DNA of 54,160 nt, the filler included, from Basidiobolus ranarum (taxonomy: Eukaryota): the NCBI GenBank assembly GCA_040143965.1. It is 4 parts of 4 records of this genome, joined end to end, with 100 filler letters (N's around TTAATTAATTAA, not from the genome) between each part and the next. Parts side by side here need not be neighbours in the genome. Positions count along the whole stretch, not along the records: positions 1 to 13,491 come from JASJQH010000478.1; 3 more parts are not named here. One strand, written 5' to 3'. The notes beneath the pieces were generated by a model, which did not search any database, was not told the DNA's origin, and saw nothing but the letters and a program-made list of their open reading frames with translations. The number at the start of each line of letters is the position of its first letter. Position 1 is the first letter of the stretch. Position numbers and translations under genes: made by a program. Positions 491-40,714 of this stretch are shown here, in pieces.

Positions 491-1085
491 AGTGAAAGTC
501 ACCTATTCTTATAGTATTCCAAATCACGTCCAACAAACTCCCAAAATACTTTAACAATAAATTAACCAAACCATGAGCTAGGCAGAAATTTTAGAAATTT
601 AGACCTTCCTTAGGATTAATTTATAAGACTATTTAGTTGAAGAAGAGTGTCAAAATTAAAGTCACCTAAATATTTATATATAAAAATACTACAGTAAACT
701 TGAGATATTGAAATAGCTACCTATTGTCATTAGAGGATAATTACAACTAACAAGTGCAGCCAAATGGTCACTATTAGTAGGATAATCTTCATACATGTCT
801 TTAAAACTTGAAATCCAGATATTATCATACATGTTGGGAATTATTGCAATTTGAATTTGACTCCGCATAGACAACCATATAAAATAGTGTTATTACATAC
901 AGTTTTAGCCCAGTTCAAGGGCTTCTTCGTAGGAAGTATTGACAGTAGTATTATGTAAATAATCAAATTAACTTATGTACAAGATCGAATAAAATTTATT
1001 AAAATCCTTAGAAGACCTAAAATTGGATAAATCAATATTAGTAATCAATGAGGAGAAATAAGGGAGAAGTGAAATTTTCTAATGA

Positions 1086-1161
1086 TTTCATTCAGTAAAA
1101 CAAGCAAGTTGGAACCATGTGGTATGTCTTAAAGACTAATCGTTAAAGCATCACGATGAAA
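1086..1161 (-). ncRNA. Box C/D snoRNA, copy 1 (predicted LSU rRNA 2'-O-methylation guide)
   Basis: Minus strand: box C-like GTGATGC (1154-1148), box D CTGA (1095-1092), 6-bp terminal stem TTTCAT/ATGAAA. The 12-nt guide CGATTAGTCTTT is complementary to the conserved LSU rRNA segment AAAGACUAAUCG. Confidence 0.8.
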
Positions 1162-1269
1162 AAGGGGTAACTAAACTAATGGATTTCTACGGAAATAAGC
1201 GATATTTACCTAAGAAAAGGATAACGAATTAGTAATGAGTGATAATAAATATTTCATGACTATATATGT

Positions 1270-1349
1270 ATATAAGCTCAGTAAAACAAGCATGTTGGAA
1301 CCATATGGTGTGTCTTAAAGACTAATCGTTAAAGCATCATTGCTGATAT
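1270..1349 (-). ncRNA. Box C/D snoRNA, copy 2 (paralogue of copy 1)
   Basis: Box C-like ATGATGC (1340-1334), box D CTGA (1281-1278), different terminal stem (ATATcAGC/GCTtATAT), identical guide (1328-1317). The core differs from copy 1 at only about 4 positions while the flanks are unrelated. Confidence 0.8.
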
Positions 1350-1704
1350 GGAATTAAGAAAAAAATGAAAAAATGGGTTGCTTTTTACCTTATATGTTTA
1401 TGCAGTCAGAGTGAAGGAAAAAGAGAAGAATGATTTCGTTTTTCTTTCAAGCGAATTTATGGACCTCCATAATCACCCACTCTGAGCATCAGGGGGGCCT
1501 AAGCAAGGGTTATGAATGCTGATTGGCCGAAAGAAGATTATTGGTTTTCAATGGAAATTACTAATGGCTAATGAGATTACTATTTTCTCCATAGTCTATG
1601 GAACGATGATTTGTAAAAAAAGAAGAAAAAAAATTGGTCACAAAGCAAGTAGTAAATGTGAATAGGTAACACCTGTCTTGGAATTTTCGTTAACATCTGT
1701 TATC

Positions 1705-3355
1705 ATGGCCGAAGAGAACACTAACGAGAATCTTACTTTTGCTGAATTGGTATTGGCTCTATTGACACCCTATTTAGAGTTGAGTTATTGTAAGCTAACT
1801 ATTTCCGTTGTAGGGGGTTATTCCTCAATTGGTTGAGGCATGTGAACGCATGAACTATAAGGCTCCCACTGAGATTCAAAGGGAATCCATCCCTTACGCT
1901 ATCAAAGGTACTTTACGACTCTCTATGGTGTTGTGTTTTCTTTGGTATTAACCTTTCTTTGAAGGACGCGACATTATTGGTCTAGCTCAAACTGGTTCGG
2001 GTAAGACTGCTGCTTTTGCGATTCCTATCCTTCAAGCATTATGGGAAAAACCTTCAGGTCTGTTTGCTTGCGTCATGGCTCCCACCAGAGAATTGGCATT
2101 CCAGATCTCTGAGACATTTGAATCCCTCGGTGCTATCATTGGTGTACGCTGTTGTGTTATCGTGGGTGGTATGGATATGATGTCTCAATCTATTGCCTTG
2201 TCGAAGAAGCCCCATATTATCGTTTGCACTCCTGGTAGATTGCAAGATCATTTGGAAAATACCAAAGGATTTTCCCTCAGAACCTTGAAATTCTTGGTAA
2301 GTAATGATATGAAGTTGGATCGATTCATCCGGCGACTTATGTTCATTGTTCTATGCATAGGTAATGGATGAAGCTGATCGTCTCTTAGACATGGACTTTG
2401 GTCCCAAAATTGAACAAATTCTCAAAGTCATTCCCAAAGAACGTACAACCTATCTGTTCTCCGCCACTATGACCACCAAGGTCGCCAAGCTTCAAAGAGC
2501 TTCACTCCAATCGCCCGTCAAAGTCGAAGTATCTACCAAGTAAGTGAAACCTCGGATAAATTCCCAGAGAGCAGATCACCTGACCTAATGTATTATTCAT
2601 TAGATATTCCACAGTGAGCACCCTGCTTCAATACTATCTGTTTTTCCCATTCAAACACAAGGATTGCTACTTGGTTTACCTTTTGAACGAGCTCGCCGGA
2701 AACTCAGCCATCGTATTCTCTAGAACATGTAATGATACCCAACGAATCGCATTGCTGCTAAGAAATCTTGGATTCCATGCAATCCCCCTACATGGACAAC
2801 TTACCATGCAAAAGCGCTTAGGTGCACTCAACAAATTTAAGGCTGGTAGTCGTAATATCTTGATCGCTACTGATGTTGCCAGTAGAGGTTTGGATATTCC
2901 AGAAGTAGATGCAGTTATCAATTACGATATCCCTACCCACTCAAAGGATTATATCCATCGTGTTGGAAGAACTGCACGTGCTGGTAGAGCCGGAAAATCC
3001 CTCACCCTGGTCACTCAGTATGATGTGGAACTTTTGCAACGTATTGAAGCAGTCATCGACAAGAAGTTGGATGAGTTCCCTGTTGATAAGGACACCGTTT
3101 TGCTTCTTCAAGAGCGTGTGTCTGAAGCTCAACGAATTGCTACTATGGTAAGTTCTAGCAACCAAACTTTAGCAAGCGCAATATTTGAATATTCATATTA
3201 ATCTAAACCCTAAACGTTAATAGGAAATGAAGGAGATAAATGCAGCCAAAAAGGGAGGCAAGCGCGGGAACGGAGGTGATGATGACGATGGTGTAGACCC
3301 TGCTATCAAGAGACTCACACAGAGAAAGAATGGAGGAAAGAGACAGCGTCATTAA
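1705..3355 (+). CDS. RRP3: DEAD-box rRNA-processing helicase Rrp3/DDX47; exons 1705-1749, 1814-1907, 1965-2296, 2361-2539, 2604-3147, 3224-3355
   Basis: Spliced translation gives the Q motif (PTEIQ), [28 protein letters not shown] and [10 protein letters not shown]. All introns are GT-AG and keep frame. Confidence 0.95.
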
Positions 3356-13491: not shown

Positions 13492-13591
13492 NNNNNNNNN
13501 NNNNNNNNNNNNNNNNNNNNNNNNNNNNNNNNNNNTTAATTAATTAANNNNNNNNNNNNNNNNNNNNNNNNNNNNNNNNNNNNNNNNNNNN
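13492..13591. other. Artificial contig linker (N44-TTAATTAATTAA-N44)
   Basis: Six-frame stop linker flanked by Ns; identical to 27062-27161 and 40615-40714. Confidence 0.95.
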
Positions 13592-25083: not shown

Positions 25084-27061
25084 ATGAGCGCATTTCTCAA
25101 CCGGTCTACGTCAAATGTGCGTTTATTTATGCGTACGAACTCAATCCTCGGTAGACATACCCAAAAACCATTGAGTTCCAAATTTCTCCTCAACGACTTT
25201 CGTATCTCCTCATATCTTCCTCAAAAGCGGTATATCTCAGATAAGCCGGGAAAGGAAACCAAGCCTGAAGAATCTAGCTTCATTCCTAAAGGTTTCGAAG
25301 GCTTTTTCGGAAAATCCGCTAAACCTCTAGCTGAGAGCAAAAACGTCAAAGAAGGTGTTCCTAGAGGTGGCCCCACACCGCCTCAAGGCCCACAAAACTT
25401 CTTTAATAGCAATAATATCGTTCCCCTTGCTGTTTCCGCTTACTTGGTTTATTCACTTACCTCATCCAAAGGTAACGTCCAAGAGATCACTTGGCAAGAA
25501 TTCCGAAACAACTACTTAGATCGTGGACTAGTTGAGAAATTAACTGTCGTCAACAAAAACCGTGTTCGCGTTCAACTTATTCACAGTGGAAGTCGTGCAG
25601 GAAATGAAGGAGTTCGTCCCGGAAACGTTATTATGTTTAATATTGGCTCCATCGATTCTTTTGAAAAGAAATTAGAGGATGCACAAAGTGAATTGAATAT
25701 TCCCTCTAATGAGAGAATTCCTGTTGCATATCATGATGAAGTCAATGTGGTTGGAACCCTCTTACATTTCGCACCTACCCTTCTTTTGATCGGTATGATA
25801 TATTACATGAGCCGTCGAGCTGGTGGAGCTGGTGGTGGAGCTCAAGGAATATTTGGAATTGGTAAATCTAAAGCCAAATTGTTCAATCACGAAACCGACA
25901 TTAAAGTGAAGTTCAAGGATGTTGCCGGTATGGATGAAGCAAAAGAAGAAATTATGGAATTTGTGAGATTCCTGAAAGATCCCAAACTCTATGAACAATT
26001 AGGTGCAAAGCTCCCCAAAGGTGCCATTCTCAGTGGACCTCCTGGTACTGGTAAAACACTTTTGGCCAAAGCTACCGCTGGAGAGGCTGGAGTTCCTTTC
26101 CTTAGTGTTTCCGGATCAGAGTTTGTAGAGATGTTCGTGGGTGTTGGTCCTTCTCGTGTTCGTGATCTATTTGCCAATGCTAAGAAAAATGCACCTTGCA
26201 TCATCTTTGTGGATGAAATTGATGCTATTGGTAAGGCTCGTGGAAAAGGTGGCCAATTTGGTGGTAATGACGAACGTGAAAGTACCCTCAACCAGCTCTT
26301 GGTGGAGATGGATGGATTCAACTCTCATGAGCATGTTGTTGTTCTTGCTGGTACCAATAGGCCCGATGTCTTGGACCCTGCTTTGATGCGTCCTGGCCGC
26401 TTCGATCGTCATATCAGCATTGATAGGCCCGATATTAAAGGTCGAAGTGCTATATTTAAGGTTCATTTGAAGCCCATCAAAACTTCGGCAGATCTTGAAA
26501 AACTTGCCAACAAAATGGCTGCCCTTACCCCTGGCTTCTCGGGAGCTGATATTTCCAACGTCTGTAATGAAGCCGCCTTAATTGCCGCACGTCGCTTAAA
26601 ATCCGAGGTTACGGAGGAAGATTTCGAAGCAGCTATTGAGAGAGTTATTGCTGGTTTGGAGAAAAAGTCGAGAGTTCTTTCTCCTGAAGAAAAGAAAACA
26701 GTCGCCTATCATGAAGCTGGTCATGCCGTAGCTGGTTGGTTTTTGCAACACGCAGACCCTCTATTGAAAGTATCCATCATTCCTCGTGGTGTCGGTGCTC
26801 TGGGTTATGCACAATACCTACCAAAGGATCAATACCTCTACTCTGTTGATCAACTTCTAGATAGAATGTGCATGACTCTTGGTGGTCGCGTTTCAGAACA
26901 AATTTTCTTCAGCACCATCACTACCGGTGCTCAGGATGACCTCCAGAAAGTCACTAAAATGGCTTATGCTCAGATCACCACCTTCTGTATGAAGGATGTA
27001 GTAGGTAATGTCTGCTATACTTCACCTAGTGAGGTGCAACAATTCCAAAAACCATATTCTG
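25084..27061 (+). CDS. AFG3: Mitochondrial m-AAA protease subunit (AFG3/YTA12, FtsH family); 3' end lost in the gap
   Basis: N-terminal presequence, two TM segments, [20 protein letters not shown] and HEAGH zinc motif. AFG3 versus YTA12 cannot be resolved by eye. Confidence 0.92.
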
Positions 27062-27161
27062 NNNNNNNNNNNNNNNNNNNNNNNNNNNNNNNNNNNNNNN
27101 NNNNNTTAATTAATTAANNNNNNNNNNNNNNNNNNNNNNNNNNNNNNNNNNNNNNNNNNNN
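27062..27161. other. Artificial contig linker
   Basis: N run with central TTAATTAATTAA. Confidence 0.95.
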
Positions 27162-34599: not shown

Positions 34600-37135
34600 T
34601 TATGTATGCATTGGTTTTTTGAACTAGATTAAAAGTATACTCAGAAGTTGCTGTACAGTCAAACAACTGATTTACTGGCCTGCTACTCAAGTCACCAAAT
34701 TGTGTTAGAATTAAACCCACTTAAGCAATATCATACACTTTCTTTAAATAGCTAAGTCTATCCTCATTGGGACCAGATCTACTAACAATATTATCAGCAA
34801 TACCAATTTTAAAATAATATTCTACATCTCTAACTATCGATAGACTTACCTAGTTCATTTTTGCATTAGATGTACCTACATAGCTTTTGAGCACTTTTTT
34901 GACAATTAGTCTTTGAATAACAGAATTAATTCCCAATATCAGTCACTTGTTAGTACAAATTGTGTAAATGGTGATATTTGGATTTCTGATAATGGTGCTT
35001 ATAACATTTACCCTAGGTTATTGCTGGTAAAATATAGGGCTGGTGGGGGATGTTTTAAGCAATAGAGTTTGAAATACTTGTATAATAGGTGATTTTAACC
35101 TGTAATAGAGTTTTATGCATTATGGATCCAACACAAAAGATAATTCATTGGATTGCATTGTGAAAATCTGTGGCAGTAAGATGTACAGTCTTAGGGTTAA
35201 TTTGGATGATTTTAAAATCCTAAGTATGCCTTTGCTAATTGCTAGATAATCCACACATACACTGAAAATATATTCAAATATTCTGCCAGGCTAAAGTTGA
35301 CTAAAAGTGATTGGCAACTTAGATGAAGCATAATGATAAGTCAGGTCTATACTATTTGAGTAGCAGGTCACAATGAGTATATACTTTGTACTCAGATACA
35401 ATGGGTGGCATTGTTTTAGTTGCTTCATGCTTAATAAAATATGATTCCTTTTATGGAAGGGAAGATACATTTTGGACATTTCCAAATAAATATGATTGAA
35501 TGAAATCCAATTTTTGGAACAATTTGGTTAAACCAGAGCTCTTGAATGGCTGTTGGGCTTGTTTTTGATATATGCAACCCTCACAAATTTCCATTTTGGT
35601 TGGGAGAGTTAATATGAGTTCCAGATATTATGCAAATCCAGCATGGCCAAATTGCTTACACCATGATTGAACAGTTTCTTGATTGGAATAACTTACACAT
35701 GAGCACCTTGGATGATATGCATGTTTCTATAACTTCTGATCATTTTTTGCAAGGCTAGATAGTTCCCATTTTGATCAGTGATGATGCATTGAGGTTTATC
35801 AAAATTGTATTTTAGTCCTTCCCAGGTGGCCTGGAATACAGATATTAAAATCTTGGCAATATCTAGAAGATGCAGTACATTCTTAAAAGTATACACTTTC
35901 TCTTCAGAAACATCAGTTAAATAGACTGGAATTATTCCCATTTCAATGGCATCCAATGTACAGTCTTCCCTCTTAAGAACCTTTCTAATTGGAATTCCTT
36001 TATAATCCCAAGACTAATGTTTTTCATTTGTGATAAGATGGGATGCTCCAGAGTCAATATGACACATCTGGGAATCCTTATTGGTAGTCATAGATAGAGC
36101 AGATATGAGCAAGTGATCTCTTGATTTAACCACATTTACAGATTCAGTACATTCTTCTTCTTTTGCAATTCTTTTAAAGCAGTATTTGCTTAAATAGCCA
36201 GTTGTTTTACAGTAATCACAGATTGTCCTACTTTTCTTTTTAAAGTGCTTTTGACCTTTACAGGAAGGTTTCCCATAGCTTATTAGAGCATTTTATTCAT
36301 TCTTTTGATTGGATCCTAATTTGCATAAATCTTCATCCAGAAGTCTGCCAAATACATAATTTCACAAAGTGTGTTACTTTTTAAAGTGCTTTTGACTTCT
36401 GCATGAAGGTTTTCTATAGCCTATCAAAGTGTTATTTTGATTATTTTGGTTTGATTGTAATTTGCATAAATCTTCATCCAGAAAACTGCCAAATACAAAA
36501 TATAAGGTCAAATTTTCAGTTCTTGATTATTAAACTGTTACTAGGCTCTGAAACTCATGTGGCAGGCTATTCAGGACTGTGACTATGATATCCTGACTGG
36601 TAGTAGGTACTGCAATGCATGCCACATCATCTGCTAAATTAGTGACTATTAATTGGTGAAATATATTTTTCTCCTGGCTTCAACTTGAAATCTAAGAAAT
36701 TTCTTCTTTGAAGCATATAGTTGCCAGCAGAACATGTTTAGTTGGTATCTTCCAAGATTTCCTTACCTTCTTGCCAGTTTTGACTTTTAAATATTAAGTT
36801 TTCATTTGTCTCCAACATTAAGACAAAATGTGTTAAAGCTAATTTGTTCTTTTCTAACCCGGAGCAAAACTGTGGTTTCAGATGGTTTTGCATTGTTTTC
36901 TTCTCCTACAACAGTATCCCAAGGTCCTTTTTCTTGCAGCAGCATCTTCATTTCAATTTTCAATCTTGATGATTACTTTCATACAATTTTTCATAAGTGG
37001 GAAAAGTTTCAGACTGGAGAAAAAGATTAGAGAGAGTGCAAGCTTGTGACTCATTACCTGTTAAAGTATTTTGGGATCCTGTTAGAAATTATTTAGAGAA
37101 TTAGACTCATAATGTTGAATAAGAATTAAGGGAAG
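34600..37135 (-). mobile_element. Degenerate Ty1/copia retrotransposon: LTR end, PBS, gag, protease, start of integrase (left boundary approximate)
   Basis: LTR end at 37059 with degenerate PBS. Gag pieces MKMLLQEKGPWDTVVG and TVLNSLPHEFQSLV, zinc knuckle CDYCKTTGYLSKYC, protease region FKNVLHLLDIAKILISV...CIITD, integrase zinc-finger half CEGCIYQKQ. Many stops. Confidence 0.85.
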
Positions 37136-40614: not shown

Positions 40615-40714
40615 NNNNNNNNNNNNNNNNNNNNNNNNNNNNNNNNNNNNNNNNNNNNTTAATTAATTAANNNNNNNNNNNNNNNNNNNNNNNNNNNNNN
40701 NNNNNNNNNNNNNN
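40615..40714. other. Artificial contig linker
   Basis: N run with central TTAATTAATTAA. Confidence 0.95.

Follow-up and report, generated by a model that had tools for sequence, protein, structure and literature searches.

Near the start of a 54,160-nt stretch of DNA from Basidiobolus ranarum (assembly GCA_040143965.1; hereafter the window) lies a putative small non-coding host gene for small nucleolar RNAs (snoRNAs), which consists of two abutting introns on the minus strand, each with one C/D box snoRNA. Its elements are given here in window coordinates and are read on the minus strand. A putative non-coding exon 1 (1389-1440; the 3′ end is set by the donor, the 5′ end is guessed) runs out in ...ATATAAG with G1389 as its last base, giving the border AAG|GTAAAA (1389/1388). 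Intron 1 (1210-1388, 179 nt) comprises the GTAAAA donor at 1388-1383, snoRNA copy 1, a TACTAAT branch site at 1234-1228 with A1229 as branch A, a pyrimidine tract and the acceptor TAG at 1212-1210. The donor of intron 2, GTAAAT (1209-1204), starts directly after this TAG with 0 bases between; acceptor G1210 touches donor G1209, and the candidate exon at 1209-1210 (TAG|GTAAAT) has a length of zero. Intron 2 (1017-1209, 193 nt) continues with snoRNA copy 2, TACTAAT at 1043-1037 (branch A1038) and TAG at 1019-1017. It is followed by a putative non-coding terminal exon (970-1016), which carries AATAAA at 1000-995 and whose 3′ end is guessed. The whole two-intron composite measures 372 nt. A first-pass annotation of this DNA had placed the donors, branch sites and acceptors at positions that hold to the base, with AATAAA after them, and the zero-nucleotide junction which it had described at 1210/1209 is present in the sequence.

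Both snoRNAs carry the expected boxes. Copy 1 (1271-1348) has box C AUGAUGC at 1340-1334, a guide at 1328-1317, D′ AAGA at 1316-1313 and box D CUGA at 1281-1278; its terminal stem (1348-1342 with 1277-1271, UAUCAGC with GCUUAUA) forms 6 of 7 pairs. In copy 2 (1086-1161) the corresponding elements are box C GUGAUGC at 1154-1148, the guide at 1142-1131, D′ at 1130-1127 and box D CUGA at 1095-1092, with a terminal stem (1161-1156 with 1091-1086, UUUCAU with AUGAAA) in which all 6 of 6 bases pair and which appears in the minimum-free-energy fold. The stem sequences of the two copies are unlike each other, and pairing is kept in both. The seventh base of box C is C instead of A in both copies (consensus RUGAUGA). 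From box D to the branch A we measured 49 nt in copy 1 and 54 nt in copy 2, in line with the roughly 50 nt given by the first-pass annotation. Neither the putative exon 1 nor the exon 3 stretch contains an ATG, and no minus-strand open reading frame (ORF) of at least 60 amino acids occurs in 1-2000. The spliced host exons thus appear to be devoid of coding potential. Each snoRNA sits in a unit with complete donor, branch site and acceptor, which supports the earlier proposal of a snoRNA host in part.

The 12-nt guide CGATTAGTCTTT, which stands immediately before D′ AAGA, is the exact complement of the conserved fungal large-subunit (LSU) ribosomal RNA (rRNA) motif AAAGACTAATCG; in the LSU sequences printed in PMC12287172, this motif lies within the conserved stretch ...GGGGCGAAAGACTAATCGAACC.... 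Guide and D′ box together form a 16-mer that is found twice in the window versus 0.03 expected. We scanned a metagenome collection for TGATG-N2-10-CGATTAGTCTTT-NNGA-N20-50-CTGA, i.e., C box, guide, NNGA and D box, and obtained 79 matches in 78 loci (handles beginning with L below), with about 5 expected by chance according to our own rough estimate. The box after the guide is often a canonical CTGA in these homologues and AAGA or ATGA in a fungal-looking group. Because homologues carry CTGA at the same place, we read AAGA as the D′ box of the window copies. When 21 fungal-type homologues out of the 78 loci were aligned, residues outside the search pattern proved to be conserved as well: the C that follows AAGA, and ATGG in the C′ region. 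The sequence model built from this alignment (R1) matched copy 1 (1273-1343, minus; 53.2 bits, E 9.5e-16) and copy 2 (1090-1155, minus; 52.7 bits, E 1.4e-15), scores that are partly circular, as the homologue pattern was taken from the window. It matched nothing else in the 54 kb. With boxes, stems and family matches at E ~1e-15, both elements are real C/D snoRNAs, as first annotated, and on these sequence features they are members of a widespread conserved fungal C/D family.

By the fifth-nucleotide rule, which places the methylated base (PMC10557570), the D′ guide is predicted to direct 2′-O-methylation of the A in LSU rRNA AAAGA*CUAAUCG. In the LSU sequence printed in PMC12287172, the stretch immediately 5′ of this target pairs with the D guide of the Rfam snR60 consensus, which puts the target 9 nt to the 3′ side of the snR60 site. 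A placement of the target in the snR39/snR59 (A807) region was rejected because of its position relative to the snR60 site. If Gm908 in yeast numbering is the snR60 site, as we assume, the target would presumably fall at about A917. The other guide, in front of box D, looks like a degenerate version of CATGCATGGCTTT, which many homologues carry as a guide.

Among the homologues, two further arrangements were observed. L005 contains two matches in tandem, 662 nt apart on the minus strand, in a homologue of non-fungal type with a canonical CTGA D′ box. L034 holds a C/D cluster on the plus strand (11-99, 255-336 and 1257-1347) with weak Rfam matches to SNORD24 (34.5 bits), snR60/Z15 (36.1 bits, via the D guide) and snoR1 (30.2 bits); its middle snoRNA combines the D′ guide of the window family with a snR60-type D guide.

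The junction between the two introns has the layout of a recursive splice site, TACTAAT-N16-TAG|GTAAAT (1234-1204), and exon 1 joined to 1209 would read AAG|GTAAAT, i.e., a regenerated donor. The composite motif CTAAY-N8-30-YAGGTAAR is matched twice in the 54 kb, both strands counted, versus 0.34 expected. One match is the site exactly between the two snoRNA copies; the other (34845-34869, minus) is without a pyrimidine tract and has no snoRNA nearby. These counts bear on the possibility that no host is spliced at all, with the snoRNAs transcribed alone or cut from a precursor that is never spliced, and with splice-like motifs that are due to chance. Most snoRNAs of S. cerevisiae do come from independent genes or unspliced polycistronic clusters (PMC2780460). 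Here, however, a complete set of signals occurs twice and in register, the composite motif is rare and yet falls exactly between the copies, and the fungal homologues of the family are intronic, all of which makes such an explanation highly improbable.

A repeat search returned a 62-nt direct repeat, 95% identical and with a start-to-start spacing of 186, which is the period reported in the first-pass annotation. The two 186-nt units can be aligned over their full length. Their cores are identical at 59 of 62 positions and their splice signals at 17 of 18 (donor AGGTAAAA 7/8, branch TACTAAT 7/7, acceptor TAG 3/3), whereas the unit flanks, with 21/51 identical positions on the 5′ side and 27/65 in the rest of the 3′ flank (41-42%), are saturated. 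Conservation is read here between two paralogous units inside one locus. The saturated flanks point to an old duplication, and since the signals were kept while the flanks were not, we argue that splicing makes use of the internal sites (branch, acceptor and donor). A single long intron could do without exactly these signals, the first two of which belong to unit 1 and the donor to unit 2, and the pattern fits selection on them since the duplication. The 95% identity of the cores could be due to constraint or to gene conversion. The most likely origin of the pair is an old tandem duplication that copied one intron exactly; the end-to-end alignment, saturated flanks and kept signals fit the whole-intron duplication that had been suggested before. 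The terminal exon begins with GTCTTC after TAG, and AGGT therefore stands at both outer borders as well as at the inner junction. In a single-intron ancestor, AGGT at both borders could have aided the event: unequal exchange or slippage between these sites would have duplicated one intron exactly and created TAG|GT.

The same comparison argues against one 372-nt intron with donor 1388, branch 1038 and acceptor 1017, in which the internal signals would be relics of the duplication. Both snoRNAs would then originate from a single lariat or from endonucleolytic cutting between the copies, and the internal signals would at most recruit the spliceosome for assembly of the small nucleolar ribonucleoprotein (snoRNP), without catalysis. 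Several snoRNAs per intron are found in rice and Drosophila (PMC2780460), and the internal donor GTAAAT is off consensus. Relics should decay like the flanks, however, instead of being kept at 17 of 18 bases next to flanks at 41-42%. Moreover, such an intron would have about five times the local intron length and copy 1 would sit about 240 nt from the sole branch site, while in the solved fungal cases (S. pombe, the Candida clade and D. hansenii) the internal site is used. A single long intron thus appears unlikely.

We consider it probable, with some reservation, that the locus is a non-coding host in which the two snoRNA introns, with an exon of zero length between them, are spliced out one at a time, and that it descends from an old one-intron duplication. 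The two introns would leave in two separate splicing reactions, giving the same product whichever goes first; in 5′-to-3′ order, exon 1 would be joined to 1209 and the donor AAG|GTAAAT regenerated. Each snoRNA would be released in a lariat of its own and would meet the spliceosome at a distance favouring splicing-coupled C/D snoRNP assembly; after debranching, exonucleases would trim each snoRNA, which could then guide the predicted methylation. The spliceosomal helicase Aquarius, which has its binding position some 50 nt upstream of the branch site, has been proposed to link splicing with C/D snoRNP biogenesis (PMC10557570). With two introns, box D and branch A are 49 and 54 nt apart, which is about this distance. 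Transcription, use of the internal site, the order of splicing and methylation are all inferred from sequence.

The host may also be leaky, i.e., the internal sites might be used in some transcripts only, with one intron retained or one copy poorly made. Hosts of snoRNA clusters in N. crassa are alternatively spliced (PMC2780460), and two routes lead to one product in the Candida parapsilosis group (PMC5033589). The sequence favours neither copy, though, as boxes, stems, guide and spacing are intact in both, and we regard leaky splicing as distinctly unlikely.

The separate removal of two abutting snoRNA introns has close parallels in other fungi. In S. pombe, the gene SPNCRNA.445 (snoRNA61) has a zero-length exon inside a 336-nt intron, identified by spliceosome-profiling peaks and reverse transcription PCR, with internal sites conserved in other Schizosaccharomyces (Chen et al., bioRxiv 10.1101/226894); two zero-length-exon cases in all are mentioned for this species in the excerpts of that study. 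SPNCRNA.445 and the Basidiobolus locus have in common a non-coding snoRNA host, a composite intron of a few hundred nucleotides and abutting 3′ and 5′ splice sites. They differ in lineage (Ascomycota versus a relative of the Zoopagomycota), in the name of the snoRNA and in the evidence, which is RNA there and sequence alone here. For cluster II of the Candida parapsilosis group (snR57-snR55-snR61), three modes of splicing are described, classical, nested and recursive, the last with a zero-length exon, and single-base exons occur as well (Donovan et al. 2016, PMC5033589). Cluster III of D. hansenii requires recursive splicing, with an exon of zero between snR41 and snR70 (PMC5033589, citing Luo et al. 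PMC3596301; the words recursive and zero do not occur in the text of Luo et al.). These clusters resemble the Basidiobolus locus in having one snoRNA per intron, non-coding polycistronic hosts and exons of 1, 0 or 'negative' nucleotides (PMC5033589). They hold different snoRNAs, whereas the Basidiobolus locus holds two copies of one; and the zero-length state in Candida belongs to only one of two splicing routes, whereas in Basidiobolus it is fixed in the DNA. The novelty implied in the first-pass annotation was thus overstated, because fungal zero-length exons between snoRNA introns had already been documented with RNA evidence, and its comparison with recursive sites in long animal introns missed the closer precedents in S. 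pombe, Candida and D. hansenii.

Other systems share single traits with the locus. The ratchet points of Drosophila and vertebrates likewise juxtapose acceptor and donor and regenerate the donor after the first splice, but they serve introns of tens of kilobases without a snoRNA. At 372 nt, the Basidiobolus composite is no very long intron to be divided, and we rejected its identification as an animal-type ratchet point; the purpose of its internal site is likely the provision of one branch site per snoRNA. The stwintrons of filamentous fungi also consist of two touching spliceosomal introns that are removed consecutively. There, the inner intron breaks a signal of the outer one and so forces the order, whereas the Basidiobolus introns are complete and merely abut; with the signals of both intact, a stwintron is ruled out. 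The intronic clusters of rice and Drosophila place several snoRNAs between one pair of exons, as here, but within one intron, for which internal splice sites are not described in the excerpts of PMC2780460. Literature searches on snoRNAs in Basidiobolus, on snoRNAs in introns of mitochondrial ribosomal protein S35 and on fungal snoRNAs with zero-length exons returned nothing relevant.

An intron with a snoRNA of the same family also appears to abut a second intron in a different host. In the fungal-type metagenome loci the snoRNA sits in an intron, and in many of them the upstream exon encodes ...RVDAILRLKGLE.W.K, which belongs to a Bot1p domain (PF12298, E 3.1e-22). Among annotated proteins, the nearest relatives come from Agaricomycetes and bear the name 37S ribosomal protein S35, mitochondrial. 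All 22 mS35/Bot1 loci with enough flanking sequence, several of which are near-duplicates (12 distinct donor/microexon combinations), showed YAG|GT after the snoRNA intron, followed by a short intron and a 3-nt microexon. They are L010, L014, L020, L021, L031, L032, L033, L036, L037, L040, L041, L045, L048, L051, L058, L059, L060, L065, L066, L068, L076 and L078; the layout is exemplified by L020:5640-6075 (minus). Two loci with short flanks were left out, L018 (17 nt) and L015 (102 nt; AG|GT is seen and the sequence is unreadable beyond).

In these loci, a branch motif lies 20-44 nt after box D and precedes YAG|GT, with GTGACC, GTAGAC, GTAAAC, GTATGT, GTAATT, GTGAAC, GTATTT, GTAACC and GTGAAA as donor-like hexamers. 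They open a second intron-like stretch of 62-72 nt that ends in YAG, with a candidate branch motif visible in all six middle stretches inspected. The microexon reads GAG, CAG, AAT, ACG, AAA, GAT or GAA, after which a GT donor opens a third intron, and in 16 of the 22 loci this third intron contains a second C/D snoRNA by pattern. This second snoRNA (L020:5670-5810, minus, and the corresponding place in the 16 loci) has the C box TGAYGA, followed by ATCATTCGCGA and, further on, CAACCCCATCTGA. Its two guides match LSU GCGAATGAT and GGGGTTGAAA (by eye, in the sequence of PMC12287172), both slightly 3′ of the target of the first snoRNA.

The annotated proteins provide a view of the spliced product. 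The junction motif is present in 28 of 35 of them. In 18 of these 28, W.K is joined directly to GK.LQTGF, and five have one extra residue (Q, Q, Q, E and T), which corresponds to the coding of CAG, GAG and ACG microexons; the remaining five are read-through or truncated models. The middle stretch of 62-72 nt is missing from 23 of the 28 proteins and is thus intronic. A plain intron is present in eight fungal-type loci. In L001 (7325-7560), L004 and L009, a plain single intron occupies the same place in the Bot1-like gene; the next exon of L001 opens with GAGGGAAAG (E-G-K), of which E is a separate microexon elsewhere. Since the window has no Bot1/mS35 coding sequence (tblastn, best E 0.48), we treat the non-coding host and the mS35/Bot1 host as separate settings. 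A cruder rule was applied to all 79 matches, by which a GT after the first candidate acceptor was scored. GT was found in 28 of 39 fungal-type matches with flank and in 0 of 21 other matches; the remainder were 15 matches without a branch motif and 4 with short flanks.

Several observations weigh against two separate splices in Basidiobolus or against the supporting evidence. Four of the 28 AG|GT matches under the cruder rule (L034, L047, L055 and L057, plant- or alga-like) seem to be followed by a real exon of about 70 nt, and AG|GT alone is therefore insufficient. It is weak evidence by itself also because the outer acceptor of the host gene is likewise followed by GT (TAG|GTCTTC). Both donors deviate from GTAAGT at +5 (GTAAAA and GTAAAT), and the window shows no excess of TACTAAT alone (12 occurrences versus 13.5 expected). 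Binding of U1 at 1209 would overlap recognition of the acceptor at 1210, and the two introns would hence not be recognisable simultaneously. As to the snoRNAs, the circularity of the R1 scores has been mentioned, and Rfam gave no match at gathering score for the window, nor for the 20 loci searched among the 78 homologous ones; the best matches in the window were SNORD91 (18.3 bits, E 1.6) and SNORD72 (18.5 bits, E 4.7). For the guide that precedes box D, no rRNA target was found. In folding, neither copy did better than its shuffles (z 0.5-0.6), which is usual for C/D snoRNAs and hence uninformative.

The locus is a further example of a known fungal trick, and its mechanism is not new. What may be new is the reach of this trick into an early-diverging fungus, a paralogous design that exposes selection on the inner signals, an unannotated snoRNA family with a predicted LSU target and, as read from the metagenome loci, the mS35/Bot1 layout of intron, zero-length exon, intron, 3-nt microexon and snoRNA intron. 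If the internal junction is used, recursive splicing of snoRNA hosts extends from the Ascomycota to an early-diverging fungal lineage. The paralogous halves make the locus an unusually clean case, as selection on splice signals can be read against decayed flanks. They also suggest a route for the birth of snoRNA paralogues, namely duplication of one intron between AGGT borders with the spliced host RNA unaltered. If this is true, exact tandem duplication of introns would be a general way for intronic snoRNA genes to multiply without disturbing the host messenger RNA. The mS35/Bot1 gene offers a protein-coding test bed in which the reading frame shows the middle piece to be intronic, and a widespread C/D family with its predicted LSU methylation site, outside the coverage of Rfam, is now defined. 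That zero-length exons are a recurrent, selected device throughout the fungi, which provides every intronic C/D snoRNA with a branch site of its own some 50 nt downstream and occurs in such unrelated hosts as the non-coding gene and mS35/Bot1 of Agaricomycete-like fungi, and that exact duplication of introns at AGGT is general, we put forward tentatively and with more doubt than confidence.

Downstream of the AATAAA of the host gene, a further set of splice-like motifs was seen at 745-898 (minus): GTATGT at 898, TACTAAT at 779-773 and TTAG about 26 nt on. A third snoRNA intron at 898-745 was rejected, as C/D boxes are absent from it. The set may belong to a host transcript running on or to another small gene.

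On the other side, a DEAD-box RNA helicase gene (1705-3300, plus) is divergent from the snoRNA host. Because it begins at its ATG at 1705, the host promoter is confined to 1390-1704, a region that the two genes would share. The five introns of the helicase gene measure about 55-85 nt. Three have the donor GTAAGT and the other two GTATTG and GTACTT, and their branch sites belong to the CTAAC/CTAAT/TTAAC type; the intron signals of the host agree with these. A sequence search against the PDB did not settle the helicase subfamily; the protein may be Rrp3/DDX47-like. If this is true, a helicase of ribosome biogenesis and a snoRNA host would share one promoter region.

The window also contains a Gti1/Pac2 ORF and an intronless AFG3-type ORF (25084-27003), whose product shares 87-89% identity with Basidiobolus meristosporus and B. 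ranarum proteins, compared with about 72-78% for those of Mucoromycota and Glomeromycota. At 116-241, a long, nearly perfect hairpin (both strands) gave weak Rfam matches to plant and animal microRNA families (best 29.6 bits versus a gathering score of 113); this hairpin probably represents an inverted repeat or the relic of a small transposon. The filler of the window contains six runs of 44 N in three pairs (13492-13591, 27062-27161 and 40615-40714), and one of these pairs cuts the 3′ end of the AFG3 ORF.

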